Source of the DNA: a virus | Virus record (IMG/VR): IMGVR_UViG_3300017963_000025 | Location: 1-64,000 of that record | Direction: 5' to 3' (one strand) | DNA length: 64,000 nt | Shown here: positions 5,514 through 40,669 of the stretch, piece by piece | Layout: every line of letters begins with the position of its first letter | Numbering within the stretch: position 1 is the stretch's first letter | The notes under the pieces: model-generated | The model's database searches: none | Told to the model about the DNA's origin: nothing | What the model saw: the letters and a program-made list of their open reading frames with translations, nothing else | Program-made: the position numbers and the translations under genes

Positions 5514-7283
5514 ATGGACGAAAACACAAAACGCCGCGAGGAAAAAACCAAACGACGGGCACTTACGAAAGCCCTGGTAAAGCAAACACAGAAAGAAATT
5601 TCGGCATACCGGGAAAAAAGAGACGCGGTACTCTCCCAACAGATAGAAGCCGAAGCCCCCGAATTTCCCATGGAACGAGTGGGAAACAATATTTTCCTGA
5701 CACCTCCCTATGATCCCCATGAACTTTACGCATGGGCGATACGCTGTGACATTGTGAAGGCGTGTACGGATGCCATGGTCCAAAATGTGGACGGGTTCGG
5801 ATACAAACTGGTGTATCTTGGGGACGACACCACTGTGGATGAGGATGACCCAGAAAAAGAACGTATCAAAAATATTCTGGACCAAGCGAACGAATACCAA
5901 TCATTCACGACCATCCGCAAACGTTTGCGGACGGACTTGGAGGTAATCGGATACGGCGGGATTGAGGTGGTGCGTTACACCGGGGGAGAAATTTTTCTGT
6001 ATCCGATCAAAGCTGTCAATCTGAGAATGACCCAAAAACTCGCCCCTGAAATCCCGGTAAAAATCAATATTAAGCGGGATGGAAAAATTGTAACACTGAC
6101 TGTGAACCGAAAATTCCGGAAATTCGCCCAGGTACGAAGTGATGGTAAAATACGGTATTTCAAAGAATTTGGTGATCCCCGATACCTGAATAAAACCACC
6201 GGGGAATATTTTGACACACCCATCGCACCGGAACAAAATTCCACGGAAATCTGGTTCTTTCGGCATGACTTCGGGGTCAGTGCTTACGGATGCCCACCAT
6301 GGGTCGCCGCAATACTGGATGTCATGGGTCGGTACAAGTCCAAATATATCAACATGGACCTGATGGATTCACAGGGTATCCCCCCGATGCTGATCACCGT
6401 TTCAAACGGGTCACTGACAGACGAGTCCTATGAGGAATTGCAAATCATCCTAGACGCGTTTCGGGGCTATCAGAATTTCAATCGGATTGCCTGTCTCGAA
6501 TCCGAATTTGCGGATACCAGCATTGACGGCACCTCCGGCAGTGGCAATGCAAAAATCGAATTAAAGAACATGGTGGCCTTTCGACAATCCGATCTGATGT
6601 TCAAGGGCTACCTGAAACAAACCGGGGAGGATATTCGCCACACCCGCCGCATCCCCGATCTTTATCTCGGAATATCAGAATCATATACACATGCCACTTC
6701 GAAAGCTGCCCAAGCGGTGGCCGAAGAGCAGGTGTTCATCCCGGAACGTAAAGAATTTGACGAACGGTTCCATTTGGAATTCACCATACCGGAGTTGAAT
6801 GTGCGAAATTGGAAAATGGTGTCAAAAGGCCCGCAGATTGTCGGTGCCTCCCAGATCACCCAGGGGGTAAACGCGTTCAAAGACGCGCTGACTGTAAACT
6901 CTGCCATTGATTTGGCCAACACCGCATTCGGCACTGAAATGAGCCATTTCAGAGAGGAGTGGGCAAAATACCCCATTTCCCTCGTGATGGAATGGATCAA
7001 GCTCGGCAAGATCGATATGCACAGTAAGGTGGATCAAAGTATCACGGATACGATACCGGATAACACGGAACCTCCCCCGGACATGCCGGAGGATTTGCCG
7101 GACAATCAGCAAGAATTATTGAAAGCACTATATAATATTCGGTGCCGGATGGATGATATCTTTAAAAACGATGGCGAAAATTACGCGGCGGAAGAAATGC
7201 TCCCCGACATAATCAAAAATGCCATGCGGTTTATGGCCGACGTGGGAGAGGAGTTGGCATCCTATGACTCGACCGATATTTAA
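5514..7283 (+). CDS. Portal protein, PBSX family
   Basis: LTPPYDP, NVDGFG, DLEVIG..IEVVR, YFKEFGDPR, YGCPPW motifs; TAGGAG RBS before ATG 5514. Confidence 0.88.
   Translation: MDENTKRREEKTKRRALTKALVKQTQKEISAYREKRDAVLSQQIEAEAPEFPMERVGNNIFLTPPYDPHELYAWAIRCDIVKACTDAMVQNVDGFGYKLVYLGDDTTVDEDDPEKERIKNILDQANEYQSFTTIRKRLRTDLEVIGYGGIEVVRYTGGEIFLYPIKAVNLRMTQKLAPEIPVKINIKRDGKIVTLTVNRKFRKFAQVRSDGKIRYFKEFGDPRYLNKTTGEYFDTPIAPEQNSTEIWFFRHDFGVSAYGCPPWVAAILDVMGRYKSKYINMDLMDSQGIPPMLITVSNGSLTDESYEELQIILDAFRGYQNFNRIACLESEFADTSIDGTSGSGNAKIELKNMVAFRQSDLMFKGYLKQTGEDIRHTRRIPDLYLGISESYTHATSKAAQAVAEEQVFIPERKEFDERFHLEFTIPELNVRNWKMVSKGPQIVGASQITQGVNAFKDALTVNSAIDLANTAFGTEMSHFREEWAKYPISLVMEWIKLGKIDMHSKVDQSITDTIPDNTEPPPDMPEDLPDNQQELLKALYNIRCRMDDIFKNDGENYAAEEMLPDIIKNAMRFMADVGEELASYDSTDI
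5914..5931. repeat. 18-bp palindrome, copy 2 (inside portal, IRKRLRT)
   Basis: Exact match. Confidence 0.97.
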
Positions 7284-8154
7284 AGCGGATGTAAGGACCG
7301 AACGGTGGGGTGCCACTACTATGGCATTGTTTGCAAATCTCCGCAAAATTTGGCGGGAGCATTACATCAAACCGGTGGGCCGAATTACCAACGCGTTTGA
7401 CTTCAACCCGAATACCGGACGATACAATGTGGACGAAGAGGCCATTCGAAAAAATATGGCGCAAATCCGGAACAAATCCGCCATGGTATGGAATGCGTCC
7501 GCGCCCTATGTCAAAAAAGCATTTGGGAACGCCACCAAAAAGGGACTGAAACATTTTACAGACCAACAGGCCAAAACCAAATCCGTGTTCGTGTCAAAAC
7601 TGAACCAGGCGGATTGGGACCGGTTGGTGGAAACATCGCTCACGAATCATATGGAATTATTTACCCGCGAATTTCCCGACCGAATTTTGGGTCCGGAGGT
7701 GGAGCGGTTGGTCAATCTGTTTGTCAGTCGGGCGGAAACGGATATTGCGGCAATTGCCACGGTACAGGAACGTATCCGACGACTGGACCAAATGCTGTCC
7801 GGTTATCTTTACGACCTGACCGACGTTACCGTTGGAAGGGCGTGGAACTTCGCAGGGATCAACATGGCCTATGATACCGGCGTGGTTCGCGCGATGATCG
7901 TGGCAATACTGGACGCACTGACGTGTCAGGTGTGCGTCCGGTTACATGGAAAACGGATAGACGTGGCCGCCATGTACAACCGGGCCAACGCGTTTCTGAA
8001 CGCGGACTACGCCAACGCCACCGACGTGGCCAGTGGGTGGCCGTTTCCGCGTATTGCCGACGTGGACAACGTATCCCCCCGAATTATTGAGGCAAGGGGA
8101 TACCTTCCCATGTTTCACAACAAATGCCGGTGTGACATTGTTTTTTTATGGTAA
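7264..8154 (+). CDS. Head morphogenesis protein (Mu gpF/SPP1 gp7-like)
   Basis: C-terminal DALTCQVC..LHGK and PMFHNKCRC motifs; directly downstream of portal. Confidence 0.8.
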   Translation: MTRPIFKADVRTERWGATTMALFANLRKIWREHYIKPVGRITNAFDFNPNTGRYNVDEEAIRKNMAQIRNKSAMVWNASAPYVKKAFGNATKKGLKHFTDQQAKTKSVFVSKLNQADWDRLVETSLTNHMELFTREFPDRILGPEVERLVNLFVSRAETDIAAIATVQERIRRLDQMLSGYLYDLTDVTVGRAWNFAGINMAYDTGVVRAMIVAILDALTCQVCVRLHGKRIDVAAMYNRANAFLNADYANATDVASGWPFPRIADVDNVSPRIIEARGYLPMFHNKCRCDIVFLW

Positions 8155-8155
8155 A

Positions 8156-8173
8156 TCCGCAAACGTTTGCGGA
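8156..8173. repeat. 18-bp palindrome, copy 3
   Basis: Exact match, 1 nt after TAA. Confidence 0.97.
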
Positions 8174-8186
8174 GAGAGGGGGAATT

Positions 8187-8354
8187 GTGGAATTGTCCAA
8201 ACAAAAAATACTGACACCGCAAGAGAAACAATGCCCCTATTGCGGACAGATCATCCAGTATTCGAAAAATCCGTTCAGGCTCATTCGCACCGGAAATTGC
8301 GTTCATTATTACTATGACCCGTTTGGTGGTGACATCGTATTCAAAGAAGGGTAG
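8187..8354 (+). CDS. Small zinc-ribbon hypothetical protein
   Basis: CPYC..CVH; GAGGGG RBS before GTG. Confidence 0.45.
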   Translation: MELSKQKILTPQEKQCPYCGQIIQYSKNPFRLIRTGNCVHYYYDPFGGDIVFKEG

Positions 8355-8359
8355 ACCAA

Positions 8360-8719: not shown

Positions 8720-8729
8720 CCAATCTTAT

Positions 8730-8801
8730 CGCGGCGTGGGGGAGTGGTCACCCTGCAAGGCTCATGCCCTTGCGACGCAGGTTCGAATCCTGCCGCCGCC
8801 A
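8730..8801 (+). tRNA. tRNA-Met(CAT), initiator type, no encoded CCA
   Basis: Cloverleaf: acceptor CGCGGCG/CGCCGCC with 1:72 mismatch, D arm GGGG/CCCT, anticodon stem CAAGG/CCTTG with loop CTCATGC, T arm GCAGG-TTCGAAT-CCTGC, discriminator A. Confidence 0.85.
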
Positions 8802-8825
8802 TCAAACTTAAAAAGAGGTGTGACA

Positions 8826-9140: not shown

Positions 9141-9176
9141 GGTATCAATCACTTACAACGTAATCGGGAAAAGAAA

Positions 9177-9728: not shown

Positions 9729-9756
9729 AAACAACAATTAGAAAAGGAGAATTAGT

Positions 9757-10131: not shown

Positions 10132-10134
10132 TAT

Positions 10135-12274: not shown

Positions 12275-12292
12275 TCCGCAAACGTTTGCGGA
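12275..12292. repeat. 18-bp palindrome, copy 4 (extends to 24 bp, 12272-12295)
   Basis: Exact match directly after TAA. Confidence 0.97.
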
Positions 12293-12368
12293 TTAAAAAT
12301 CATTACATTGTGATACTTTACTCGTCCAAAACAATATCACAATGTAATGATTTGACAGCTACCGTAAA

Positions 12369-15556: not shown

Positions 15557-16143
15557 ACATTGTAGGGTTGGAACAAGAGCGACGGATTATGGAAATCGCG
15601 GTCACCGGGAATCACGGGGCCATGCTGATTGGTCGAAAGAACAGTGGCAAACGGCTCATGATGAGGGAATTTCTAAACATAATCGGTTATCCTGATTCCG
15701 TACTGACCCATGCGTCCAACAAATATGTGGGACCGGATGACAGTTGTCTGGTGTTTGACCCGGCGTATTGCCACAACGGGAGTGTGCTGGCGAACAAACG
15801 ACACGGACGGGTGGGATGGAAAGACGTGGCCGGAAATCCGAAACAGGAATCTATGATTCACGTGGCAAAGCGTGTTTTTTTAGCGCGTTATTTTTTGTAT
15901 GAGAAGCCGTTCGATTATGATGCAATCCGAAAAAAATCGGACGGCGTTACATTGAAACTGATTGAGGAGGCATACGACCGGTTGTCACTGAATTCCGGGG
16001 ATGTCGTGGATTTGATGAACGTGGCCTACACGATTTTTATTTTGTCCCGTGAAAAAAAATTGGGTGTCGGACATGTTGCGGAGGCAATCGCCTACTGCCC
16101 ACAAAAATTGGATCATGAGCATGAAAAAAGAAACGATCCTTAG
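15544..16143 (+). CDS. Truncated ComM/YifB (Mg-chelatase-like AAA+) homologue
   Basis: IVGLEQERRIMEIAVTGNHGAMLIGRKNSGK matches the ComM AAA start; EAYDRLSL....MNVAYTI..L....HVAEAIAY matches the ComM C-terminus; middle missing. Confidence 0.65.
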   Translation: MERINIVGLEQERRIMEIAVTGNHGAMLIGRKNSGKRLMMREFLNIIGYPDSVLTHASNKYVGPDDSCLVFDPAYCHNGSVLANKRHGRVGWKDVAGNPKQESMIHVAKRVFLARYFLYEKPFDYDAIRKKSDGVTLKLIEEAYDRLSLNSGDVVDLMNVAYTIFILSREKKLGVGHVAEAIAYCPQKLDHEHEKRNDP

Positions 16144-17119
16144 ATTTCTGAACGCATTGGGCGCGGACATGACGCGGATGCGTATTCGGGGGGACTGGAT
16201 GAACGTGCGGTGTCCGTTGGCACATATTACCCACACCAACGGGGATGCGCATCCGAGTTGCGGAATTCTGATATCCGATGACGGACCGGCAATATACCAT
16301 TGTTTCGGGTGTTCCGGGGGCAAACCGGAGTCGTTGTCGTGGATGGTCCACACGATGTGGGTTGCCACGGGACGATACCCGACAGATGCGGCAAAGATAC
16401 TGGCCAGTGAAAATTTTGTATCAGAGAGTGACGCTCCGGTATTTGATTGGGACATCCGCAAACGTTTGCGGATGACACCCCTGGATGCCGACGTGTTGAA
16501 GCAATATCCGCCATTGTCCGACAGCGTATCGTGCCTGACCGCCATGGTGGTCCGGAACTGGCTTACGGAATGCAGGGGGTTGGCTCCAAGCATAATTGAC
16601 ACGCACGGGTTGCGGTATTCCCCAGAGAATTGTACCGTGGTGTTTCCGCTGACAGATCATGCCGGGAACATTTTTGTGTTGCAAGAGCGGATGATTGGTA
16701 CGAAAAAAATGTGGACCGTAAATGAAAACACGTCCGGTGTGCATGTTGACTACCCCACAATTCGCCATGCGGGGTGTTGGATGAATCTTAAAAACGCGGA
16801 TTGGGGTCGCCCCGTGATGCTGGTGGAAAGCGGATTTGACGCGGGCCGGATTGCGTCTCTCGGGTTTGACAATGTGATTGCGTCCGGGGGTACGGGTGTT
16901 ACTCCCGCGCAAATCGGGGCGTTGGCCGGTCACACGTATATTTTGGGATATGACAATGATCGGGCAGGTCAACAGGCAATGGCAAGAATTGCCCGTATGT
17001 TGGGGAATCATACGGTGTATGTGGCGGATTGGGGCGTGGTGGGGGTTAAGGACGGTGGTGATTTGGTTAATGCGGAACAATTAAAAAAAGTTTTGACGAA
17101 TACACGCCGCATGACTTGA
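16121..17119 (+). CDS. DNA primase (zinc-binding domain plus TOPRIM)
   Basis: CPL..H...HPS, CFGC; VESGFDA, YDNDRAG, KDGGD. Confidence 0.85.
   Translation: MKKETILRFLNALGADMTRMRIRGDWMNVRCPLAHITHTNGDAHPSCGILISDDGPAIYHCFGCSGGKPESLSWMVHTMWVATGRYPTDAAKILASENFVSESDAPVFDWDIRKRLRMTPLDADVLKQYPPLSDSVSCLTAMVVRNWLTECRGLAPSIIDTHGLRYSPENCTVVFPLTDHAGNIFVLQERMIGTKKMWTVNENTSGVHVDYPTIRHAGCWMNLKNADWGRPVMLVESGFDAGRIASLGFDNVIASGGTGVTPAQIGALAGHTYILGYDNDRAGQQAMARIARMLGNHTVYVADWGVVGVKDGGDLVNAEQLKKVLTNTRRMT
16455..16472. repeat. 18-bp palindrome, copy 5 (inside primase)
   Basis: Exact match; extends to 22 bp. Confidence 0.97.
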
Positions 17120-17460: not shown

Positions 17461-18297
17461 ATGAATGATTGGTGCATTACCGGTGAAAAAGGATGGGATA
17501 TTGCGGAACAAGACGCGAAAGACAGACAACAGAGGTATGAAGAAAACAAGAAAATCAAATACCGATTTCGGATTCCGCCGAACAGTGAGGCCACGGTGCT
17601 GTGGTTGGACAACCTTTGGTATTTTCTGTATGAACATTCGGTCAGGTTGAACGGGTATTTTAGCCGGATGACCTGTATTCAGTCCAAGGAGGATTGTCCG
17701 GAATGTTTGCGCGGAGGAAGGCGCATATTCGGTGTGGCGTCTACAATTATTCGCCTGACGCCCTATGTTACGAGAAAAGGAGAACAACGAAATTATATGA
17801 AGTGTCCCGTGGTGTTCAGCGGGAAAGCGTTGGAAAATATCAAAACCCAACACCAAAATATGGATAAGAATATGATCGGATTGGTGTACCGGTTCAGACG
17901 CGGGTCCGACTCCAAAAGTTGTGCCACCGGGGAGGATTTCACCCCCATAATGCAAAACGGATCGGTGATCCGAATCACCGATTTTGAACAATTGCGGAAG
18001 CATTGTCCGCAGGATGAGCGATTTGAAGACTGGATCAAACCGTTTGATTATACCGAACAATTCCCGTTTTATCCGGCGGATGTGATGCGTCGAAAGCTCG
18101 GTATCCCGGACCCGATGGGCGCGGCGCAGCCCCACGGAACGGAAAGCACCGATTTGAATTCCATATTCGGAACGAATGCCGTGTCCGTCGCACCGACACC
18201 CGATTCTGGCGCACCTGCCAATATTGATGATTTGTTTGCAGGCGGGGGGTCACAACAAACAGAAACAGTGCCACCGGACGATGACATACCATTTTGA
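17461..18297 (+). CDS. ssb: Single-stranded DNA-binding protein (gp32-like, zinc-binding)
   Basis: RFRIP, EH..C...CPEC, acidic tail ending DDDIPF. Confidence 0.8.
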   Translation: MNDWCITGEKGWDIAEQDAKDRQQRYEENKKIKYRFRIPPNSEATVLWLDNLWYFLYEHSVRLNGYFSRMTCIQSKEDCPECLRGGRRIFGVASTIIRLTPYVTRKGEQRNYMKCPVVFSGKALENIKTQHQNMDKNMIGLVYRFRRGSDSKSCATGEDFTPIMQNGSVIRITDFEQLRKHCPQDERFEDWIKPFDYTEQFPFYPADVMRRKLGIPDPMGAAQPHGTESTDLNSIFGTNAVSVAPTPDSGAPANIDDLFAGGGSQQTETVPPDDDIPF

Positions 18298-19679
18298 TGA
18301 AATTCAGCGAGGCCACAGTCAGTACCCATGTGTTCGTTCCGAAGCATGAGGTAGATCCGGATTTGTTGGATGATTACGTCATCGAATCCGCATTTGAGGA
18401 TAATCGGCACGTAATCCGGACCTATGCGGAAACCGGTCGGCATATCGGATTCCCACGGAATTGTTTGCCACCGGGTTTTCGGGCAGAAAAGGTCTATGAC
18501 TTGCGTGTCACCGGCCCGAAAACCTACGGCACATTCACTTCCGAACTAAGACCGGACCAGTCCGACATTGTAAGGCGCACATTGGCAATATTACGCACCG
18601 AGGGCGGTGTGGTGATTCATGCTGATCCTGCTTACGGAAAAACCGTGTGTATTTTGAATATTCTGACCGAATTAAAGCGGCGGGCCATAGTTTTGGTACA
18701 CAAGAGGGATTTGGTATGGCAATGGGTGGAAAGAATCATACAACACACCACCATACCCCGGTCCCAGGTTGCGGTTGCGATGGACGGTGAAGTTGGTGCG
18801 TTGGACGGAAAAAATATTCTTGTCGGGTTGGTACATACTATCGGAAAAAATTGTTGGGGAGAGACACTTACGCACTGGCCGGGGGTGGTGGTGTTCGACG
18901 AAGTTCATAGCAGTGTGCCTCCGCAAACGTTTGCGGACGTGGCGGCAATGTTTCCAGCCAAATACCGAATCGGGGCTACTGCCACTCCACGGAGACAAGA
19001 CCGGATGCACCGGGTGTTTGAGCACCATATTGCAAGTTCGCGTCATCATGTCCGGGCGGTGGCTCCAACCCAAAACAAATCCGTGATCGTAATACATCGC
19101 TATTATGACCGTCATAAAATGCCGATTGAAGCGAAAAGCGTTCATGCAATTCGCGCACAGCTTTTTTATATCTTGATGAGTGACCCCGTGCGGAACCAAC
19201 TGATTGTCAACTATGTGTCATCGTTTGTGTCCGGGGGTCGCCGGGTGATTGTCGTATCAGATCGCATCTATCATTTGGCGGTGTTGGCGGCGATGACCCG
19301 GAAGAAACATCCGGACAAACAAGTCGGATTTTATACGAATCAGGTTGCGGTGCTGGACGAATACTGGACAGAGATTCGACGTACCACAAACACCAAAGCC
19401 GATCTTGATCTTACGGCCAAATATGCGGATGTGATATTCGCCACTTACAAAATGTTGGGGGAGGGGACCGATTTGGAAAATGTATCCGGAATGATTTATG
19501 CGATGCCCCGGACGGAGGTGGAGCAGTCCAAGGGTCGTATCGAGGGGCCGCGATCCGGCGGAAAAAAGCCCGTGGTAGTGGATATTTGGGACATGGTGTA
19601 CCCAACGGCCACGGGTTATGCAAAAAAGCGGATGTCGCATTATCAGTCGGTGGGTGCGTCCGTACATTACAGGGGGTAG
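18297..19679 (+). CDS. Superfamily 2 DEAD/H helicase
   Basis: AYGKT, DEVH, TATP, EGTD, QSKGRI. Confidence 0.9.
   Translation: MKFSEATVSTHVFVPKHEVDPDLLDDYVIESAFEDNRHVIRTYAETGRHIGFPRNCLPPGFRAEKVYDLRVTGPKTYGTFTSELRPDQSDIVRRTLAILRTEGGVVIHADPAYGKTVCILNILTELKRRAIVLVHKRDLVWQWVERIIQHTTIPRSQVAVAMDGEVGALDGKNILVGLVHTIGKNCWGETLTHWPGVVVFDEVHSSVPPQTFADVAAMFPAKYRIGATATPRRQDRMHRVFEHHIASSRHHVRAVAPTQNKSVIVIHRYYDRHKMPIEAKSVHAIRAQLFYILMSDPVRNQLIVNYVSSFVSGGRRVIVVSDRIYHLAVLAAMTRKKHPDKQVGFYTNQVAVLDEYWTEIRRTTNTKADLDLTAKYADVIFATYKMLGEGTDLENVSGMIYAMPRTEVEQSKGRIEGPRSGGKKPVVVDIWDMVYPTATGYAKKRMSHYQSVGASVHYRG
18920..18937. repeat. 18-bp palindrome, copy 6 (inside helicase, just after DEVH)
   Basis: Exact match. Confidence 0.97.
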
Positions 19680-19681
19680 AC

Positions 19682-20125
19682 ATGGCATCGTCATCGGACT
19701 ATCAAAAAGAATATTACCGGAGAAACCGGGAAGAAATTTTAAAGCAGAGAAAGAAACGATACCAGGAGGATAAGGATTATCGGGAGGGGTTGAAGACAAA
19801 GGCATTACAGAAGCACCATGCCAACAAACCCCCGAAAAAAAACAGGCTGGTGGTGAATGCGGATGGGAAAACTTTTTACACCACCGGTTACTTGTCAAAG
19901 ATGACCGGAATTAATATGATGACGATTCATTATTACATCCGGCACGGGATTATCCCGAACGCAAAAATTGTCCGTTGCGGATGGAAAATTTACACTGAGG
20001 AACAGATCGAAATTATCCGAGACGCGTTTGCGCCGTATGGCACCAAACGGAAGTCCGGTGAGGATTTGGAGCAAATCAAATTGAAAATACAAAAAGGATT
20101 CAACGCATGCCAAAAAAGAAAATAA
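19682..20125 (+). CDS. MerR-type HTH DNA-binding protein
   Basis: YTTGYLSKMTGI...TIHYY...GIIP......GWKIYTEEQI. Confidence 0.7.
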   Translation: MASSSDYQKEYYRRNREEILKQRKKRYQEDKDYREGLKTKALQKHHANKPPKKNRLVVNADGKTFYTTGYLSKMTGINMMTIHYYIRHGIIPNAKIVRCGWKIYTEEQIEIIRDAFAPYGTKRKSGEDLEQIKLKIQKGFNACQKRK

Positions 20126-21734: not shown

Positions 21735-22204
21735 GATTATTTTGCAAAGAATGCGGGGGCGTGTTATACGGCTATCCACGACATTTTCATAAGGGCATGG
21801 ATACTCTGTGCTCCCTCCGGTGTATGTGGAAGTGGGGGAAAACAAAACGAGTGGTGCCGGATATTCGTGTGCATCATTCCCAGGAATTTGCCGAATTCCG
21901 TAGCCGATTTGAGATTATGTTTGCGGAATGGCTGACCGTCAACGGATTCCCTGTGATTTACGAACAGTATTTATTCAGGCTTGGGGATCACGGATCATAT
22001 ACCCCGGATTTTTTTATCCCGGACGCGGGATTTGTGGAAGTCAAAGGCGTGTGGCATCCTGGGCAGCGTAAGAAAATGGACCGATTTATGGCGGAATATC
22101 CGGAAATTCCCATTGTATTGTTGCCGTGGCCGGTGAACATCCAACTATGTCCGCAAACGTTTGCGGACGACGGAGACGTGTCCGATGTACGCAGAATTTT
22201 ATGA
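21731..22204 (+). CDS. PD-(D/E)xK endonuclease (T7 endonuclease I-like)
   Basis: FRSRFE, YE, YTPDF, VEVKG. Confidence 0.75.
   Translation: MRLFCKECGGVLYGYPRHFHKGMDTLCSLRCMWKWGKTKRVVPDIRVHHSQEFAEFRSRFEIMFAEWLTVNGFPVIYEQYLFRLGDHGSYTPDFFIPDAGFVEVKGVWHPGQRKKMDRFMAEYPEIPIVLLPWPVNIQLCPQTFADDGDVSDVRRIL
22150..22167. repeat. 18-bp palindrome, copy 7
   Basis: Exact match in the 3' end of the endonuclease gene. Confidence 0.97.
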
Positions 22205-23639: not shown

Positions 23640-23657
23640 TCCGCAAACGTTTTCGGA
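23640..23657. repeat. 18-bp palindrome, copy 8 (1 mismatch)
   Basis: TCCGCAAACGTTTTCGGA after TGA, 7 nt upstream of a TTGACA. Confidence 0.9.
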
Positions 23658-23736: not shown

Positions 23737-25368
23737 ATGAACCAAGTATCATTGGCACAATATTTGGCTGCGGGATATTCCGGTATTCATCTGAGAACGG
23801 ATGATATTCATGAAGCACGGTGCTTCATCATCAATTCGCTAAAATCGGTCGAACTGGCCGAAGGTGACCGAAAGGTCACAATGCTGGACCGAATGACGAT
23901 TTATGAGTGGGAACCCCGTTTTGGGGGTGGAAGACTTGCCGAAATACCAAATGATTATGCAGACGGGGTGTATGACGATGATGAATGGGAATCCGAGTCC
24001 AAAACAATTGACGATATGTTTATCGCTATGGAAGAGAAGGACCATGCCCTGTGTATCGTTAGGAATTCACGATCCTATTTGGAGGAAAGTCCGACCAATA
24101 CCGCAACCAATGCTACGACTATTGCGGCGGCAACGGACGCACTGATTATGGCCAAAGATCGGGGGAGCGCGTTTGTATTTCTGGGCAGCATATTCAAACC
24201 AGCCCAAGAGATAGATTACCTGATTACCGTGGTGGATTCGCCCTACCCCACCCGTCGTGATATCCGAGACAAAGCGCGGGCCATGGCGGAAAGCGCGGAA
24301 ATTGTCCCTGACAAAAGAGACAAACAGTACGCGACTTTTGAACGTAGCATTGCCGATGCCGCTATTGCCGGTTCCGGTATGAGTCACATGGCGGTTGAAA
24401 ACGCACTGTCATTGTCCATTGCATTGACGGGGGCATTTGATCATCGTATCATCATGAACGAAAAATCCGCCGAAATCCGGAAATCCGACGTATTAGAATA
24501 TTTTCCGGTGGATGAGGGATTGAAATATGTTGGTGGGATGGATTTGTTGAAAATGTATCTTTCGAAACGAAAAAACGCATTGGGAGAGGATGCGGAAAAA
24601 TTCGGTATCCTTCCCCCGAAAGGCATTTTGTTGGCGGGTATTCCCGGCACCGGAAAAAGTTTGGTGGCGAAGGCCGTATCATGTGAGTTTGGATGGCCAT
24701 GCCTTCGGTTGGATATGGGGAAAGTGTTCCGGTCCTATGTCGGGCAATCCGAAGCGGCTATCCGAAATGCGCTACAAGTGGCAGAGGCGGTGTCTCCGTG
24801 TGTGTTGTTTATTGACGAAATTGAGAAATCCGTTGCCGGGGCCGGATCGGATACGGATTCCGGTACGAGTTCACGGGTGGTTTCCACGTTGCTCACATGG
24901 AGACAGGAAACCACGAAACCCGTTTTTCTGGCGTGTACGGCAAACAAGGTGAGCGCAATCCCCCCGGAATTGATGCGGCATGGCAGGTTGGATGCTGTGT
25001 TTTTCACAGACACGCCAAACTATGCGGAGCGAGCGGAGATATTCAGAATTCATTTGGAAAAAAAACGGCGCGACCCTGACATGTTCGACATTGCGGAATT
25101 GGCGGAACAATCGGCAGAGTTTATCGGGTCGGAGATTGAGCAATGCATTATGGATGCGTTATATTCGGCGTTCGACCAGAAAACCGAAATAACCACGGAC
25201 CATATTCTCCGGGAAATCCTACAGACCAAACCCCTGTCTGTCAGGAATGCAGAGGAAGTCCGGTACATTCGGGAGTGGGGTATGTCGCGTGCAAGGCCCG
25301 TGAGTTCGAAATATGACGGGGATAGATCAAGGAAAAAGGGGCGTGTGCTCCGAACAATAAAAAATTAA
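23737..25368 (+). CDS. AAA+ ATPase, Ycf46-like
   Basis: VGGMDLLK, PKGILL.GIPGTGKSL.AKA, FIDEIEK, TAN....PPEL.R.GRLD, PLS. Confidence 0.9.
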   Translation: MNQVSLAQYLAAGYSGIHLRTDDIHEARCFIINSLKSVELAEGDRKVTMLDRMTIYEWEPRFGGGRLAEIPNDYADGVYDDDEWESESKTIDDMFIAMEEKDHALCIVRNSRSYLEESPTNTATNATTIAAATDALIMAKDRGSAFVFLGSIFKPAQEIDYLITVVDSPYPTRRDIRDKARAMAESAEIVPDKRDKQYATFERSIADAAIAGSGMSHMAVENALSLSIALTGAFDHRIIMNEKSAEIRKSDVLEYFPVDEGLKYVGGMDLLKMYLSKRKNALGEDAEKFGILPPKGILLAGIPGTGKSLVAKAVSCEFGWPCLRLDMGKVFRSYVGQSEAAIRNALQVAEAVSPCVLFIDEIEKSVAGAGSDTDSGTSSRVVSTLLTWRQETTKPVFLACTANKVSAIPPELMRHGRLDAVFFTDTPNYAERAEIFRIHLEKKRRDPDMFDIAELAEQSAEFIGSEIEQCIMDALYSAFDQKTEITTDHILREILQTKPLSVRNAEEVRYIREWGMSRARPVSSKYDGDRSRKKGRVLRTIKN

Positions 25369-26352: not shown

Positions 26353-27267
26353 ATGGATACGATTCCGTTTGAAAAAATGCCTGTTTGGTTGGTGAGGAAT
26401 GGTGTCCGCACCGGATTAAGATATGCAATTCGTCAATCGGATTGGACCTTGGCGCGGACCTGCCTCGAAAAAATATTGCCAGATGATGGTATGTCATGGC
26501 TACAATGGAATATTCCCATTGCCATTGCCCATGATGCTTGTCATCTCATTCCGTTGATTGCCAAAGTTGATCATGCGGACGCAGATACATTTAGAAAATT
26601 GGTGGCAACGATTACGTTGTCCCCAAAAAATCAGGATGCCTATTCCCTGTCCGTGAGCAGCCCGTTTGAAGAACAGATGCCAATTGAAACTGAGCAAACC
26701 CTGTATTGGATTAGCCGGGGCTATTTTGTACATGAAAGATTGCGAGAGTGGGCAGTTGGGAAAGGGTGTGCCGAGGATGTTCTTGACCCGATCAATCGTC
26801 GTGTGGCTATGGGCGGACGCGCTGAGGACACCAAGACGTTTGTGGCGTGTCATGTGATTCTGGCAAACCGGGAGGTTGAGTCTCCCCGACTTGGTAAACC
26901 AGTGGTTTACCAATTATCTGATGAGTTGCCCTTGGTTTGTTTTGGCCCTGAAGGTCAGGTCGGCCGAGATATTGAGCGTCGGTTCGAGAAAACGTGTCTG
27001 TATAAATACGATATGGATATGATTCATATAATTCGGCTATGGCGTGAATTCATGTATGAGAGGGTACCATTAACGAAACTGCATCCGGATAGCCGCTACT
27101 ATAGGAAACGGCTTGAAACGAACACAATATATCAGGATTATTCGGCCCATGATATGTGGGCGTTATGGAAAAAATCATTAAAACATGATATAACAGAGTG
27201 TATTCGATATGTAATTGAAGAGGAGATAAGACAATGGAATTTGTCGGTCCCGTCGCAAAGGCCCTAA
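26353..27267 (+). CDS. Hypothetical protein
   Basis: 304-aa coupled ORF. Confidence 0.6.
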   Translation: MDTIPFEKMPVWLVRNGVRTGLRYAIRQSDWTLARTCLEKILPDDGMSWLQWNIPIAIAHDACHLIPLIAKVDHADADTFRKLVATITLSPKNQDAYSLSVSSPFEEQMPIETEQTLYWISRGYFVHERLREWAVGKGCAEDVLDPINRRVAMGGRAEDTKTFVACHVILANREVESPRLGKPVVYQLSDELPLVCFGPEGQVGRDIERRFEKTCLYKYDMDMIHIIRLWREFMYERVPLTKLHPDSRYYRKRLETNTIYQDYSAHDMWALWKKSLKHDITECIRYVIEEEIRQWNLSVPSQRP

Positions 27268-28178
27268 AGAAGGACAACGGAAAAGTGTTCCCCGGTATTC
27301 GGTGGGAACACCAGGAGCAAGTCAAATTGCCAATCCGGTTGCTATACTATAATGGTTGGAACCCAAATGAAATGACTGAAAGCGAGTTTAACGCGCTATC
27401 CGGAAACGTGGACGAAGTGGCTATGCTTGACCCCGTGTTGGTCGTGCCGTGGACTACTACCGAACAACAGGTAGAAATCGAGGATCGTCTTTATACAGCG
27501 GATCATGGGCAGGTGGTGACAGACTGTGGAGAGGTGGTGTTCCGTGTCGTGGACGGGGAACACCGAACCGAACAGCAACGGATTGCGGATGCGGAGTATA
27601 TTCCCTGTATCATCGGACATCCGGAACGGTTGGACGAATTCATGCAGAAAAAACAGACCATGCGTATGAACATGATCCGGGGAAAACTGAACCGGAAAAA
27701 GTTCAATGCCCTGGTTGAGGATTTCATAAACAACTACGGGACGGACATGGATGCGTTGCCGGATGAACTTGGGTTTTCGGATTCAAAGGAATTCTATCGC
27801 ATGATTGACGTGGCGCGGGAATCCCTGCCGGAAGACCTTCAGAAAGAATTTGACCGGGTGAAGGACGGTATCACAAACATTGATGATCTGGGTGCGGTGA
27901 TCAATCGGTTGTTTTCCGAGTTTGGTGACACCGTACCTGCGAACTATATGATTTTGGATTTCGGAGGCAAGGACCATATCTGGGTCAAAATATCAGTGGG
28001 GAAGTTTGACACCATGCGCCGGGTGGCGGATGACATTCGAAAGCACGGGCATACGTTTGATTCCATGATCTGTCATATTTTGGAACATCTGAATATCGAA
28101 AAATATGTCGAGCGTTATGGGGGTCAGTTGGAATTGATCGAATCACATCCGCAAACGTTTGCGGACGAGGAGGATTGA
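27234..28178 (+). CDS. ParB/Srx N-terminal domain protein
   Basis: WNPNEM....F.AL...V.....LDPVLV, VVDGEHR, IPCII, MN.IRG. Confidence 0.8.
   Translation: MEFVGPVAKALKKDNGKVFPGIRWEHQEQVKLPIRLLYYNGWNPNEMTESEFNALSGNVDEVAMLDPVLVVPWTTTEQQVEIEDRLYTADHGQVVTDCGEVVFRVVDGEHRTEQQRIADAEYIPCIIGHPERLDEFMQKKQTMRMNMIRGKLNRKKFNALVEDFINNYGTDMDALPDELGFSDSKEFYRMIDVARESLPEDLQKEFDRVKDGITNIDDLGAVINRLFSEFGDTVPANYMILDFGGKDHIWVKISVGKFDTMRRVADDIRKHGHTFDSMICHILEHLNIEKYVERYGGQLELIESHPQTFADEED
28148..28165. repeat. 18-bp palindrome, copy 9 (3' end of ParB-like gene)
   Basis: Exact match. Confidence 0.97.
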
Positions 28179-29279: not shown

Positions 29280-31328
29280 GTGGAATTGATCCAACGGAAC
29301 CGGTGTATTGATATGATTCGGAACATGGGGACGGATGCGGGGCTGTCCCCCCGAAACATGATTATCCTTACGTCCATGGTGGAATCCGTGCCGTTTGTTA
29401 AGCATGACAGTGAGGAGTACTGCCAGTTAAACGATATCATGAGCTTCGCACAGAATTTCCGGGATGCGGTTAAACATAGTGATTCCAGCTTTCTCCACCG
29501 GAAACGTGGATTGAAATACAAGATCGTTGATTTTGAGGAGTTTGCCGAATCACGGGAATACCTTGACCAAAAGGCAAGCATCCGACCGCGTATCAAACAA
29601 GAATTGATGCGGTTGTTTAATCCCGCCAATGATTTTATTGAGGTGGTGCTCGGCGGGGCCATTGGGGTGGGGAAAAACTATTTTAACGATTTGGCAATGG
29701 CCTACATGCTGTACAGGCTCAGTTGTTACCACGACCCGCAACTTGAATTCGGCTTGGCCCCCGGTTCCTCCATGATTTTTATCATGCAGTCGAAAAGTGA
29801 AAAGCTGGCGAAGAAGGTCATTTTTGATCAGTTTGCAAGCAAATTGGCACGGTCCCCCTATTTCACCAAGCTGTTTCCGTATGACAAAAATGTCAAATCC
29901 GAAATGCGGTTTCCGAATCAGATATCCGTGCTCCCTGTCGGAGGTAACGAAACCGCCGCGCTCGGGATGAATGTTTGGAGCGCGTCCATTGACGAAATGA
30001 ATTTCATGACACGCACCACGGACAGTATGCATGTACGGTTTAGCAATGAGAGTGAATATGACCAAGCGCAAGTGTTGTACAACCACCTGATCCGGCGAAT
30101 GTACGCACGGTTCCAGGAATTCGGAAAAATACCCGGAAAGCTGATTCTGATTTCTTCCACCAATTACGAGGGGGATTTCATTTCCCGAAAAATCGAGGAA
30201 GCGCAAACCGACGATAGTATTTTTGTGATGAGTCTGGCGCAATGGGAATCGGTTCCCGCCGAAAAGTATTGCGGTGAAAAGTTCTTGGTGGAGGTTGGGA
30301 ATACCCGAAAACGAACCCGCATTGTCAATTCCAAGGAGGAAGCAGTGGACCCGGACGACGTGGTGGAGGTGCCGGTGGAATACCGGAAACAATTCGAAAC
30401 CGATCCGGAAGGGTCCATGCGTGACCTGGGGGGTCGTGCGGTGGCGGGAAAAAACAAATTCATCCCATTCCGTGAACAGATTGAGGAGTGTTTTCAAAAA
30501 TACGAGGAAGCGACCGGGGGTCGCACGTTGTTCCGGTATCCCATCGTGGACTTTTCTCAGATATTGGACATGGACCGACCGGATTTTTCGGAGATTGTGG
30601 ATTTGGAATACATTCGTGATTTTATCCTTGATCCCGCCCAGGTATTCGCAATCCATGGCGACCCCGGACTGACGGGGGATGTGTTCGGCCTCAGTGTGGG
30701 GCGGATTGTCGGATATGTATTTAGTCAATTCAGTGCTCCTCCATATGAATTCGAACCCCATGAACAAGAATTGGCGGAAATGCATCAGCGTATCACATCC
30801 GGCCAACCTATCCGATTACCTATTTTTATGATTGACGGATTGATGGGGATTGCCGCGCCACACAACGACGAAGTGGACTTTGACACCGTGCGTGATCTGG
30901 TGTTGTTCCTGAAACGGCATGTTAATATTCAGTGGGCCACTGCGGATACTTATCAAAGCGCGAATATGATTCAGGGGTTTAGGCGGGCGGGGATTCGATC
31001 CGGTCCCCTCTCCGTAGACGGAACAAAGGGAGCGGTGAAATATTTGGATTTGAAATACGCGCTGAAAGATACACGGGTGTGGCTGCCGCGTATTCCGTTG
31101 GTACAAAAAGAACTGACCGAACTGATTCGAAAACCGGACGGGAGTATTGACCATCCCCGTGGCGGTTCGAAGGATTTGGCGGATGGCGTATGTGGTACGA
31201 CCCATATTCTATTCCGAAAAGAGGCGGTCAAGGATATGAGACAACGACGACCACGGGGAAACCGACCGATTTCGCGCCGACCCACGCGTAAGTTAAGGGG
31301 TCGGCGGAAAATCAGACGTATTCTATAG
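29280..31328 (+). CDS. terL: Terminase large subunit
   Basis: Walker A GAIGVGK, IDEMNF, ISS motif, nuclease HGDPG...D, TAD.YQS, DHP.GGSKDLAD. Confidence 0.88.
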   Translation: MELIQRNRCIDMIRNMGTDAGLSPRNMIILTSMVESVPFVKHDSEEYCQLNDIMSFAQNFRDAVKHSDSSFLHRKRGLKYKIVDFEEFAESREYLDQKASIRPRIKQELMRLFNPANDFIEVVLGGAIGVGKNYFNDLAMAYMLYRLSCYHDPQLEFGLAPGSSMIFIMQSKSEKLAKKVIFDQFASKLARSPYFTKLFPYDKNVKSEMRFPNQISVLPVGGNETAALGMNVWSASIDEMNFMTRTTDSMHVRFSNESEYDQAQVLYNHLIRRMYARFQEFGKIPGKLILISSTNYEGDFISRKIEEAQTDDSIFVMSLAQWESVPAEKYCGEKFLVEVGNTRKRTRIVNSKEEAVDPDDVVEVPVEYRKQFETDPEGSMRDLGGRAVAGKNKFIPFREQIEECFQKYEEATGGRTLFRYPIVDFSQILDMDRPDFSEIVDLEYIRDFILDPAQVFAIHGDPGLTGDVFGLSVGRIVGYVFSQFSAPPYEFEPHEQELAEMHQRITSGQPIRLPIFMIDGLMGIAAPHNDEVDFDTVRDLVLFLKRHVNIQWATADTYQSANMIQGFRRAGIRSGPLSVDGTKGAVKYLDLKYALKDTRVWLPRIPLVQKELTELIRKPDGSIDHPRGGSKDLADGVCGTTHILFRKEAVKDMRQRRPRGNRPISRRPTRKLRGRRKIRRIL

Positions 31329-32510: not shown

Positions 32511-32528
32511 TCCGCAAACGTTTGCGGA
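32511..32528. repeat. 18-bp palindrome, copy 10
   Basis: Exact match, 3 nt after TAA. Confidence 0.97.
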
Positions 32529-36599: not shown

Positions 36600-36625
36600 T
36601 AAGCAAGGATTTATGAGGAGGTAGC

Positions 36626-37811: not shown

Positions 37812-37949
37812 ATGAGCTTCGAAATCGCAAAATATTATGCGGCAAGCGATATTGTTCCGGCACATTTCAGAAAGCCGGAAAACGCGTTCATCGCGTTACA
37901 GATGGCAGAACGCATGAATATTGACCCCTTCATGCTAATGCAGAATTGA
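37812..37949 (+). pseudogene. N-terminal fragment of a RecT-like recombinase
   Basis: Hand translation MSFEIAKYYAASDIVPAHFRKPENAFIALQMAERMNIDPFMLMQN*; GGAGG RBS. Confidence 0.6.
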
Positions 37950-37950
37950 A

Positions 37951-38286
37951 GCCCCGGATATATCAGAGGGATTTTCGGAAATCCGTACCCCTCCGGTACG
38001 GTATCGGGTACATGCCGCAGACTTTGACGGATGGTTGGCAGAGAATGACTATCCTGATATTGGTGACCCCATCACTGAAAATGTGCGCAAAATAAAGGAA
38101 TTATATGAAGATTTGTCCAATTTTGTTATCATTTGGACCTGTCGGCACGGGGATACGTTGAATCAGGCACGGTGGTGGTTACGTCAAAATGACATTCCGT
38201 TTGACGCAATCAATTAGAATCCATTGTTTGAAACGGGAAGCCGCAAAATATTTGCACATATGTATTTTGACGACCGGAACGGGTAG
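37951..38286 (+). pseudogene. HAD-family phosphatase with in-frame TAG and no start codon
   Basis: ADFDG...YPDIG, IIWTCR, FDAIN*N (TAG 38215-38217), RKIFAHMYFDDR. Confidence 0.7.
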
Positions 38287-38830
38287 TGTACAATAAGCAG
38301 AGGAGGGTATTGTGTTTTGGGGGAAAGGAAAAAAAGTAATGTGTGGTGTATGCCATAAATGGGTGGAAAAGTCGAAACTAAAAAAATTGTGGCATACGGA
38401 CATCGTGACGGATTCGGACAATTCGCAACGGGCCGAGGGTCCGTTCCAACCTATTCTGATTTGCAATGAATGCATGAAAATGAAGGTGAATACCTAACAG
38501 GGGGGAGAGTGAAACGTATCAAACTTATATTTGTCGTGGTGGTTATAACATTCCTGTGTGGTTGTGTCAGTGGGGAGAAAAAGCCAATGAATGACAATAT
38601 CGACCCAATCCGCCAACAACATGAGCTAAAAAGGAATATTGATCTTGATGCTTGACAATATCCCTATGTATGTGCTAATCTGGGATATCAGGAAACAGGA
38701 AGAACAAAGCATAATCGTCAATGGCTTGGCTTGACAATAACAATTTTTTCCTTGTTCCGACTGTTTCCCTATTCCCTCGGTGGCGGGGGGCCGGGTGGCT
38801 CCCCGCTTTTTTATATTAGGAGGGGTGTGT

Positions 38831-39517
38831 ATGATACCGAACTTTGAACTTAGACACATGAAGCCGACAAGCGCAAAACTTTTTATGCGTCGATGGCATT
38901 ATACGCATACGTGCGGAAATATTGTTTGTGCGCACGGATTTTATGTGGAAAACCGACTATCCGCGATTGTTTCCTATACGCCTCCCGTGGGGCGGCACCT
39001 CCCAAACAGCATTTTGGAAAACGGGATTTACTCGGAATTTTTGGAATTGCAGAGATTGTTTACACATGACCGATTGCCGAAAAACAGTGAATCCAAGTGC
39101 GTGTCAATGAGTTTGAAGCGATTGAAACAGGATTATCCGAAGGTGGTTGTGGTCGTATCCTATGCGGATTCCGGGGCGGGTCATGTGGGATACGTATATC
39201 AGGCGACTAACTGGATTTATACTGGGAAAGCGTCCAACGAGCTTAAGATATTTATCGACGGAAAACGGGTTCACCGACGATCTTTGGTGGCAAGATACGG
39301 GACATCCGGGGTGCAAAAATTAAAATCCATGGGTCTGGATATTCGTGTGAGTGACGAACGGTTCCACAAACACCGCTATATTTTTGTTTTGGCCTCGTCA
39401 AAACGGGAACGGAAGCGAACGGTGCGACGGTTGAAGGTGACCCCGCTTCCGTACCCAAAGGGAAATATTCGGTATTACGATTGCGGGGCGAGTTGCTTTG
39501 ACAAGATAGAAGGATAA
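38831..39517 (+). CDS. Mom-like adenine-modification protein (GNAT fold)
   Basis: WHY, ELQRL....PKNSES, VSYAD...GHVGYVYQATNW.YTG, HKHRY. Confidence 0.75.
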   Translation: MIPNFELRHMKPTSAKLFMRRWHYTHTCGNIVCAHGFYVENRLSAIVSYTPPVGRHLPNSILENGIYSEFLELQRLFTHDRLPKNSESKCVSMSLKRLKQDYPKVVVVVSYADSGAGHVGYVYQATNWIYTGKASNELKIFIDGKRVHRRSLVARYGTSGVQKLKSMGLDIRVSDERFHKHRYIFVLASSKRERKRTVRRLKVTPLPYPKGNIRYYDCGASCFDKIEG

Positions 39518-39735
39518 TTGTTATGACACGTGCATGGTCGTGGAAGTGTAAGAAATGCGGGATGACACACTCATTCATCCTTTTTAACCCCAGGCCCCCC
39601 GGACGGTATAAAAAATGTGACAATACCGAATGCGGAGGATTGATGGAACGGTATGAATTGGGGGAGCAATTTTATACTATGATATATGCTTCGAGATCAG
39701 CAGGAACCGGCCAAATTCAGCGGCGGGCTTGAAGG

Positions 39736-40314
39736 ATGAGAGAGCTTTCGCTTTTCACGGGGGCCGGCGGCGGGCTGCTTGCTGGCATGAAGCTCGGATG
39801 GGAGCCAGTAGGTTATGTCGAAAACAACGACTATCGGCAGCGAGTTATCAGGCAAAGGATTATTGACGGTTTCTTGCCAAAGGCACCGATCTTCGGTGAT
39901 ATCAAAGCATTCGTTAGTGAAGGGTACGCCGCAAGCTATCAGGGAATGGTTGATATCATTAGCGGCGGATTCCCCTGCCAGGACATCTCCGTTGCCGGAA
40001 AAGGCAAAGGTATTACCGGTAAAAAATCATCTCTCTGGTTTGCAATGGCCGATGCCATACGCATCATTCGACCCCGATACGTATTCATTGAAAACAGCCC
40101 AATGCTCCTTACTCGCGGATTCGAGTACGTCCTTGGTTCGCTTTTCGAAATGGGGTATGATGCGACGTGGGGTATTATATCCGCTGCCGACGTTGGCGCG
40201 TGGCATATCAGGAAAAGAATCTGGATTTTTGCTTCCCACACCGACGGTAAACGGCAACTACAACCGAAAAGGCGCGTCCAAACATTCGGGGGACGGATTG
40301 GCCACGGCAATTAA
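39736..40314 (+). CDS. C5 cytosine methyltransferase, N-terminal chain (motifs I-VIII)
   Basis: LFTGAGG, GGFPCQD.S, ENS, H.RKRIW. Confidence 0.88.
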   Translation: MRELSLFTGAGGGLLAGMKLGWEPVGYVENNDYRQRVIRQRIIDGFLPKAPIFGDIKAFVSEGYAASYQGMVDIISGGFPCQDISVAGKGKGITGKKSSLWFAMADAIRIIRPRYVFIENSPMLLTRGFEYVLGSLFEMGYDATWGIISAADVGAWHIRKRIWIFASHTDGKRQLQPKRRVQTFGGRIGHGN

Positions 40315-40669
40315 ACGACTGCTCCACACATCGACGGTACAGGATGCAAAAAATAATGCTTCGGGAAGTCATGCGAATCCGAAACACACCGGTTTTCTAA
40401 ATCCCGACTGGGTGGAATGGTTCATGGGATGGCCGGTGGGATGGTCCGATGTCAGAACGCTGAATAAACTTGTGTGGCTCCCGATAAACATGTGGCCTAA
40501 TATTAAGCCAATCACGTACAAAAAAGAAAACAGAAGAAATCGCGTCAAAGCTATCGGTGACGGGCAGGTTCCGCAGGCGGCGATTCTGGCATGGAATATC
40601 TTGTCTGGTCCGCAAACGTTTGCGGACTTAATCCAGTGTTTTACCCCCGGTTTGACCGGGGGTAAGTAA
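39815..40669 (+). CDS. C5 cytosine methyltransferase second chain (TRD plus motifs IX-X) in an overlapping frame; start uncertain
   Basis: DSPARTS, WGMM..G, LPTP, LNPDWVEWFMGWP.GW, RVKAIGDGQVPQ. Confidence 0.75.
   Translation: MSKTTTIGSELSGKGLLTVSCQRHRSSVISKHSLVKGTPQAIREWLISLAADSPARTSPLPEKAKVLPVKNHLSGLQWPMPYASFDPDTYSLKTAQCSLLADSSTSLVRFSKWGMMRRGVLYPLPTLARGISGKESGFLLPTPTVNGNYNRKGASKHSGDGLATAIKRLLHTSTVQDAKNNASGSHANPKHTGFLNPDWVEWFMGWPVGWSDVRTLNKLVWLPINMWPNIKPITYKKENRRNRVKAIGDGQVPQAAILAWNILSGPQTFADLIQCFTPGLTGGK
40609..40626. repeat. 18-bp palindrome, copy 11
   Basis: Exact match. Confidence 0.97.
40641..40665. terminator. Hairpin between convergent transcription units
   Basis: TTACCCCCGG-TTTGA-CCGGGGGTAA. 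Confidence 0.65.

Follow-up and report, generated by a model that had tools for sequence, protein, structure and literature searches.

The question raised by this locus is what a short palindrome does that recurs almost unchanged inside and between the genes of a phage, and whether its intragenic copies were inserted into those genes or written into them by codon choice. The locus is the first 64 kb (hereafter the window) of the 85,381-bp virus record IMGVR_UViG_3300017963_000025, and the element is the perfect 18-bp palindrome TCCGCAAACGTTTGCGGA, which was recognized as the conserved unit from the flanks of a 14-mer core. An earlier interpretation made from the letters of the window (hereafter the sequence-only reading) had proposed that the palindrome is written into conserved protein sequence and that its sites are selected for their density along the DNA. 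We here describe sites that are exact and evenly spaced, that are embedded in genes without indels and with tuned codons, and that have counterparts of the same architecture across a clade of related phages. On balance, we lean toward the interpretation that the palindromes serve as sites, spread over the whole genome, at which a dimeric factor encoded by the phage binds or is loaded; this factor would bind double-stranded DNA (dsDNA) and need approximately even coverage of the chromosome.

Palindrome copies between and within genes

The 14-mer core was found in 17 exact and two one-mismatch copies in the window, where 0.01 copies are expected. Throughout the genome, the 18-mer amounts to 18 exact and four one-mismatch copies, 19 of which fall in the window (Table 1). 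The mismatch spectrum is bimodal, with 18, 4, 0, 0, and 1 sites at 0, 1, 2, 3, and 4 mismatches, respectively, before the background is reached; no decaying copy of the 18-mer (two or three mismatches) was detected in the genome. According to our own gene calls, 16 copies are intergenic and six are intragenic genome-wide. Eleven of the intergenic copies sit 13–33 nt before the next start codon. A strict search for −35/−10 patterns flagged only two copies, namely those at 2069 and 23640, and a few more adjoin −35-like hexamers.

The 22 sites occur approximately once per 4 kb, and the coefficient of variation (CV) of the gaps between them is 0.50, compared with 0.94 for random placement. The even spacing was significant under a uniform null (P = 2e-4), a junction-aware null in which 16 sites were placed at gene junctions and six at random positions (P = 2e-4), and a junction-only null (P = 6e-5). 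Selection for site density along the DNA, as put forward in the sequence-only reading, is thus supported by under-dispersed spacing under all three nulls, as well as by the same pattern in related phages (see below).

Two further observations concern the surroundings of individual copies. Directly 3' of the palindrome at 12275, a perfect 19-nt inverted repeat with a 19-nt spacer occupies positions 12297–12353, and two additional, imperfect inverted repeats extend up to 12455 within a 364-nt intergenic gap. A separate 3.3-kb contig from the same sample, present at a higher depth, matches 33 nt of the window (16454–16486, the palindrome included) with one mismatch, and the sample may contain another phage that bears this motif.

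The six intragenic copies claimed to lie between 5914 and 40626 were recovered with our own gene calls, and the labels of the genes hold as well: they encode a portal protein, a Toprim primase, an SF2/ResIII helicase, a T7-type endonuclease I, a ParB-like nuclease (phrog_26387, E = 3e-56; hereafter the ParB-like protein), and a DNA methyltransferase (MTase)-like protein. Direct reading of the sequence confirmed that all three frames of the motif are free of stop codons, being translated into SANVCG, PQTFA, and RKRLR. Four intragenic copies use the frame reading PQTFAD and two that reading IRKRLR, and SANVCG appears in no credible gene. We did not accept as a gene the open reading frame (ORF) at 42130–42522, whose translation would contain SANVCG at the site; it matches no family and lies among junk-like ORFs.

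The portal and helicase peptides had been expected to fit their families without gaps, and they do so in the alignments of 35 portal and 36 helicase sequences. No indel was found at the portal site, the consensus of which is I-R-K-[LKR]-[ML]-R-x-D. R135 and R139 hardly vary, K136 occurs in 26 and I134 in 22 of the 35 sequences, and R137 and L138 occupy variable positions; one relative bears the identical IRKRLR. The helicase site lies past motif II, in a stretch with the consensus SVPP-x-TFA-P-V that is ungapped in near relatives. Residue 214 of the helicase is Asp in this phage alone and Pro at the same position in 25 of 36 relatives, and the codon for D214 provides the final two bases of the 18-mer. 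Given the peptides and the phage's own codon usage, the exact DNA has a chance of 6e-4 in the portal gene and 1.8e-3 in the helicase gene. These low chances, together with the Asp that replaces the usual Pro, support the proposal that codons were tuned to create the site.

The description of the hosting peptides as conserved protein sequence is appropriate for the portal and helicase, that is, for two of the six sites, but not for the linker of the primase or the tails of the endonuclease I, ParB-like, and MTase-like proteins. In the primase, the site falls between a conserved Trp and the PLPxxV block, within a variable linker that is as long as that in 10 homologues. Rhodobacter phage RcTiptonus (see below) and L166 place their own motifs inside the same ~30-aa linker. 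We rejected the idea that the position of the primase site is conserved clade-wide, as a primase site was found in only three of the 16 phages, each time in this variable linker. The sites in the endonuclease I and ParB-like genes are in variable C-terminal tails of ordinary length, just ahead of the next start codon (15–17 nt), and these two and the MTase-like site are all no more than 45 nt from the stop codon. The MTase-like site begins two residues past the conserved end of the family (GNGQVPQ..AW.IL), in a C-terminal tail of 21 aa as compared with 1–16 aa in 11 aligned homologues, and an extension of the protein at this site is possible. The homologues were taken from a representative search, since none was found in the five nearest relatives. 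Alignment revealed no insertion of six residues, or of any other length, at the five sites that could be judged. From these comparisons, the intragenic copies appear to have been written in at places tolerated by the proteins, with only two of the six in conserved sequence.

Palindromes of related phages

A profile search with the portal alignment retrieved 80 related viral loci, and repeats were counted in the 57 that span 10 kb or more. In 28 of the 57, a single 14-bp inverted repeat of the TG[CA]A type occurs four or more times, at one copy per 1.5–4.2 kb, and all of the repeats in these 28 loci start with TGCA, TGAA, or TGAT. The remaining loci contain at most three copies of any such repeat, and most of them only one. 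The motif comes in lineage-specific versions, e.g., TGCAAGCGATTGCA, TGCAGGAACCTGCA, and TGAAATCGATTTCA; many of them fit the form TGNAA-NCGN-TTNCA, and several are devoid of the central CG and have AA, CA, or TA instead. The two bases at the center do not form a palindrome in many relatives, yet they are constant within each genome. The intragenic copies of the relatives prefer the frame that reads [LV]-Q-x-x-A, and even spacing was detected at P < 0.05 in eight of the 16 partial loci tested. The GC content of the relatives ranges from 31% to 61%, and their hosts must thus be diverse. The relatives are 28–46% identical in the portal and 22–47% in the ParB-like protein, and each has its own motif. 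The occurrence of the trait in such distant relatives, each with a separate motif, implies its long-term maintenance.

Four cultured phages were found to carry the trait. The genome of RcTiptonus (MW677527) bears 48 copies of TGCAATCGATTGCA in 94 kb with even spacing (CV of 0.48, P < 5e-5), and 25 of them are within GenBank-annotated genes, including those for the terminase, tape measure, polymerase, primase, and helicase. We take the intragenic position of about half of these sites as further support for selection on density. Agrobacterium phage JP1 (PQ741606) possesses 11 copies of TTGCAAACGTTTGCAA in 31 kb, one every 2–3.8 kb, and shares the same 12-bp motif core with the phage studied here despite their distant kinship (the ParB-like proteins are 24% identical). 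Rhizobium phage L338C and Aeromonas phage HJ05 bear their own versions of the motif. The repeat is not mentioned in the RcTiptonus paper, and a literature search found the motif strings of this phage and its relatives in no phage paper. Altogether, a clade-wide lattice of evenly spaced palindromes, in which each lineage has its own motif, has apparently not been described before.

A separate observation was made on a half-site variant in RcTiptonus, TACAATCGATTGCA, of which 12 copies have TACAAT upstream, the mirrored form being found in only three to five. A few copies of this variant have a −35-like hexamer 17 nt upstream. Some of these variants may double as −10 promoter elements.

Nature of the signal and its candidate readers

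In relatives whose genes run one way, motifs with asymmetric centers occur in both orientations at approximately 50:50. Of the variant sites, 68 of which were compared across 11 genomes, all but two disrupt the dyad (66) and only two are compensated, which indicates that the sequence of the half-sites, not base pairing, is conserved. The mixture of orientations, the uncompensated variants, the copies deep within genes, and a spacing that is blind to gene boundaries together lead us to regard the signal as DNA rather than RNA, and the conserved half-site sequences fit reading by a dimeric dsDNA-binding protein.

As a DNA-level signal, the palindrome would be supplied at roughly one site per 4 kb over the whole chromosome. 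Wherever an intergenic gap is available, the site is accommodated there, squeezed between the stop codon and the next ribosome-binding site. Where there is no gap, it is placed in coding sequence that tolerates it, namely a pre-adapted conserved peptide (IRK..R in the portal and PP.TFA in the helicase), a variable linker (the primase), or a variable C-terminal tail. The reader would be a protein dimer that works by genome coverage, either as a KorB-like clamp that is loaded at the site and then slides 1–2 kb, or as a looping or coating protein.

The protein of the ParB/Noc/KorB fold encoded at 27234–28178 is the leading candidate for this reader, albeit a weak one, and we consider the assignment doubtful. 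Its family profile matched the N-terminal domains of ParB, Noc, Spo0J, and KorB in PDB (E = 3e-12 to 1e-6), and ParB, Noc, and KorB were the top Foldseek matches of its structure model, which is of moderate confidence (pLDDT of 65). The protein has the ParB_N fold, with GEHR in box II where ParB has GERR and with an altered box III. A ParB_N protein is encoded by 18 of the 19 large relatives. Its close phrog_26387 type was seen in nine relatives, each of which bears an evident motif. Among the seven nearer genomes examined, this phage included, four have a motif site within ~130 bp of the 3' end of the ParB-like gene. Only 14 genes are detectably shared by sequence between RcTiptonus and this phage; beyond replication and structural genes, they comprise those for the ParB-like protein and an AAA ATPase. 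The next candidate after the ParB/KorB-fold protein is the MerR-type helix-turn-helix (HTH) protein encoded at 19682–20125. This protein was found in the five nearest relatives only, and the HTH protein at the syntenic position in RcTiptonus had no Pfam match. No ParA- or KorA-like partner was found among the ~70 larger ORFs of the first 64 kb scanned against Pfam.

Several observations weigh against an array of sites for a dimeric reader, or against the ParB-like protein as that reader. Ten of the 16 intergenic copies begin 0–3 nt past a stop codon, which also fits a role at the mRNA level, and gaps of 7.1–8.1 kb remain, two of them of ~8 kb, so that the coverage is not strict. The segment of the ParB-like protein equivalent to the HTH is acidic, not basic. 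The ParB-like proteins appear to follow the phylogeny, no co-variation with the motif being seen in 12 sequences, and that of JP1 clusters with its RcTiptonus counterpart (39% identity), not with that of this phage (24%), despite the shared motif core. The presence of ParB_N is itself weak evidence, being common in large phages, and its association with the motif is confounded by phylogeny.

The closeness of the intergenic copies to stop codons, as well as to the start codons 13–33 nt downstream of 11 of them, suits an RNA element, i.e., a hairpin of 7–9 bp, closed by an ACGU loop, at which transcripts would be processed, 3' exonucleases halted, or the translation of successive genes in long operons coupled. 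The transcribed palindrome is predicted to fold into a hairpin (−10 to −14 kcal/mol) that leaves the ribosome-binding site free, and almost all of the genes are on one strand. Nevertheless, we regard this explanation as unlikely: three copies are deep within essential genes and about half of the 48 copies in RcTiptonus are intragenic, pairs are broken without compensation at nearly all variant sites, the even spacing is irrespective of gene boundaries, asymmetric loops appear in both orientations inside co-directional operons, and copies are found also where two minus-strand genes adjoin and in DNA that appears non-coding. A scan of Rfam yielded no match besides a tRNA. The same uncompensated variants (66 of 68) argue that structure is not the conserved property, and this makes it quite unlikely that the palindromes serve as hot spots of recombination or replication restart through cutting, nicking, or cruciform extrusion by the phage's own enzymes, or are targets of its DNA modification. 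Stems of 7–9 bp are also short for cruciform extrusion. What speaks for such an enzyme target is that a single block of genes encodes two resolvases (endonuclease I-like and RuvC-like) along with RecA and a PD-(D/E)XK (Cas4-like) nuclease, that a Mom-family protein and two MTase-like genes are present, that evenly spaced entry points would serve recombination-dependent replication, and that the non-palindromic central bases are constant per genome in many relatives.

This constancy of asymmetric centers would fit copying too, and the identity over 18 bp without intermediate decay could mean a recent spread of a mobile or self-copying palindrome, whether through insertions or through the gene conversion of stretches that nearly match it; the site in the MTase-like gene is indeed in a tail longer than those of the homologues. 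We consider this spread very improbable, as the length is unchanged at five of the six intragenic sites, a listing of the flanks shows no flanking duplications, even spacing is not expected from insertion, and the trait persists across the distant relatives with their private motifs. Equally remote, in our view, is the hijacking or titration of a host regulator of the LacI/PurR/MalR type. The core, GCAAACGTTTGC, is a classic operator of the LacI family and has the form of LacI/PurR/MalR operators, i.e., a palindrome of 14–16 bp in which half-sites of GCAA flank a CG at the center, and it resembles the PurR box. The 14-mer is the MalR operator of Streptococcus pneumoniae (PMC4451989). The exact 18-mer is also present as a single, operator-like copy in 80 unrelated metagenome contigs, and the TGNAA-NCGN-TTNCA form of many relatives' motifs counts in favor of a host regulator. 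On the other hand, the relatives on different hosts have private motifs, several of them without the central CG, a decoy needs neither even spacing nor intragenic placement, and no LacI-family protein was found among the ~70 phage ORFs scanned against Pfam.

Known systems, genomic setting, and implications

Among published systems, the nearest is a 17-bp dyad repeat in the Cluster O mycobacteriophages (Corndog and relatives), which occurs in more than 30 copies per ~70-kb genome with invariant arms (Cresawn et al., 2015; PMC4351075). In Corndog, 11 of the 34 copies are clearly within coding regions and most copies are away from promoters; the authors predict binding by a dimeric protein with a role outside transcription initiation, and the orientation of the sites has no significance (PMC4351075). 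Cluster O phages also encode a protein with a ParB-like domain and an AAA ATPase (PMC4351075). The phage studied here is alike in having tens of repeats with invariant arms (22 copies, 18 of them exact), inside and between ORFs and mostly not at promoters. In contrast, the Cluster O motif is TGTTCGG-N3-CCGAACA, a 7-N3-7 arrangement with a variable spacer, as opposed to a gapless 18-bp palindrome, and neither even spacing nor the tuning of codons for conserved residues nor a turnover of the motif across a clade has been reported there. Cluster O belongs to another phage lineage and host, and it is an analogue and not a relative. A portal search of the phage collection gave no Mycobacterium phage among the organism groups listed.

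By analogy, the best mechanistic model would be KorB of the IncP plasmid RK2, a CTP-dependent clamp of the ParB family that loads at the palindromic OB site and slides up to ~1.5 kb (McLean et al., 2025; PMC11790492). The OB sites of RK2 are dispersed, some of them far from promoters (PMC11790492). A sliding range of this order would tile a lattice of 2–4 kb, and both systems combine a palindromic site of 13–18 bp with a protein of the ParB/Noc/KorB fold. The systems differ in that the reader here is only putative, with an acidic HTH-like segment, no co-variation seen with the motif, and no recognized KorA/ParA partner, and in that the sites here are more numerous, evenly spaced, and in many cases intragenic across the clade.

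Two other comparisons are less apt. Stoperators are asymmetric, are oriented with transcription, and are the targets of a temperate phage's immunity repressor. Those of Cluster A (L5 and Bxb1) are similar to the sites here in being dispersed, exact, and short, and in often overlapping stop or start codons in short gaps (in part PMC4351075). The site here is, however, palindromic, and the asymmetric centers in relatives are found in both orientations. Neither an integrase nor a repressor was recognized among the ORFs scanned. Chi, KOPS, and uptake sequences, to which the sequence-only reading had likened the palindrome, are asymmetric, strand-oriented, read by host machinery, and not evenly spaced. 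They share with the palindrome the trait of being short words that are dense inside genes through codon choice, but the word of this phage is palindromic, private to its lineage, and under-dispersed. Thus, oriented and unevenly spaced sequences are poor mechanistic models for an orientation-free palindrome.

The genome has terminal repeats of 123 bp and a GC content of 46.6%. By our own gene calls, the plus strand carries nearly all of the genes, which are preceded by strong GGAGG ribosome-binding sites. The genome sequence is present in two metagenome runs, labeled as sediment and seawater, with contigs identical to the window, and the two runs look like one data set filed twice; no RNA run is listed as containing it. 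Portal and helicase proteins identical to those of this phage are on record for three contigs. The best match of the portal among cultured phages is ~33% identical and the best metagenomic portals are ~45% identical, and judging from these sequences, no cultured phage is close to this 85-kb phage. A near-identity DNA search of phage records gave no match, and a search of viral contigs with single-protein loci found no close relative. Exact scans for the 18-mer retrieved only single-copy matches, in two viral contigs and the 80 metagenome contigs mentioned above, so that a close relative sharing the motif was not found in either set. The presence of a Mom-family protein, the MTase-like protein, and an N6/N4 methyltransferase points to a modification of the phage DNA.

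Other features of the genome include a single tRNA-Met (CAT) gene at 8729–8803 and a ferritin-like gene (Dps/ferritin family) at 54529–55089. A family A DNA polymerase with an N-terminal domain of the uracil-DNA-glycosylase superfamily is encoded at 2900–5500; its gene adjoins the portal gene and is distant from the terminase gene. The stretch of ~2.5 kb at 41900–44400 is without a credible gene, is flanked by minus-strand genes, and contains one copy of the palindrome and, at 42887–42950, 5.5 units of the 12-bp tandem repeat TTGAAACATTTG. This gene-poor stretch may be an origin or a control region.

Table 1. Positions of the palindrome copies in the window and of the genes referred to in the text (E, expectation value).
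Feature	Position	Strand	Remarks
Exact 18-mer	2069..2086		directly past stop; 2 nt upstream of TTGACA-N17-TATCCT promoter-like site
Portal gene	5514..7283	+	PF04860 and homologues
Exact 18-mer in portal gene	5914..5931		reads I-RKRLR-T, portal residues 134-140
Exact 18-mer	8156..8173		1 nt past stop, 13 nt ahead of next start
Exact 18-mer	12275..12292		directly past stop; part of 24-bp palindrome; separate 19-nt inverted repeat next
Toprim primase gene	16049..17119	+	Pfam
Exact 18-mer in Toprim primase gene	16455..16472		reads IRKRLRM
SF2 (ResIII/DEAD) helicase gene	18294..19679	+	Pfam
Exact 18-mer in SF2 helicase gene	18920..18937		just past motif II, reads P-PQTFA-D
MerR-type HTH protein	19682..20125	+	adjoins helicase gene
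Exact 18-mer in endonuclease I-like resolvase tail	22150..22167		37 nt to stop, 17 nt to next start (22185)
One-mismatch copy	23640..23657		1 nt past stop; upstream of TTGACA-N17-TATTAT promoter-like site
AAA ATPase	23737-25368		among only 14 genes shared by sequence with RcTiptonus
ParB/Noc/KorB-fold protein	27234..28178	+	three small ORFs 5' of large terminase gene
Exact 18-mer in acidic C-terminal tail of ParB-like gene	28148..28165		13 nt to stop, 15 nt to next start
Terminase gene	29280-31328
Exact 18-mer	32511..32528		3 nt past stop
Mom-family protein	38780-39517		E 4e-46
Methyltransferase-like gene	39815-40669		phrog_1008, E 1e-25
Exact 18-mer in C-terminal tail of MTase-like gene	40609..40626		GC-rich terminator-like hairpin next
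Exact 18-mer	42334..42351		apparently non-coding stretch, ~2.5 kb
Exact 18-mer	44773..44790		between two minus-strand genes
One-mismatch copy	45375..45392		after terminator-like hairpin, beside TTGACA hexamer
N6/N4 methyltransferase	48179-49948
Exact 18-mer	50150..50167		17 nt ahead of next start
Exact 18-mer	51771..51788		3 nt past stop, 23 nt ahead of next start
One-mismatch copy	55108..55125		18 nt past stop
One-mismatch copy	58853..58870		10 nt past stop, 23 nt ahead of next start
Exact 18-mer	63479..63496		directly past stop, 33 nt ahead of next start

Altogether, the central proposal of the sequence-only reading is essentially right, and the comparison with related phages supports the view that this phage is one face of a clade-wide lattice. 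More tentatively, a large clade of tailed phages of 60–110 kb, with hosts of 31–61% GC and with cultured members that infect Rhodobacter, Agrobacterium, Rhizobium, and Aeromonas, might share a so far undescribed genome-tiling system, in which a private palindrome of 14–18 bp is found every 2–4 kb, is rewritten when the specificity changes, is imposed on essential proteins, and is read by a phage factor whose function requires coverage of the entire chromosome; we find this wider claim possible but rather doubtful. Such a system could mark or shield the phage's own DNA, load sliding clamps for the control of expression or the exclusion of host nucleases, or organize replication or packaging. 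The cultured carriers RcTiptonus, JP1, L338C, and HJ05 make these possibilities testable at the bench now. For annotation, there is a risk that sites of this kind are mistaken for terminators, operators, or mobile elements. An even lattice private to each lineage points to a whole-genome process outside the current models of phages, be it coating, clamp loading, looping, or self-marking. If this holds true, a code at the DNA level would constrain the sequences of essential phage proteins across a wide clade, to the extent that a conserved proline of the helicase was sacrificed for it.

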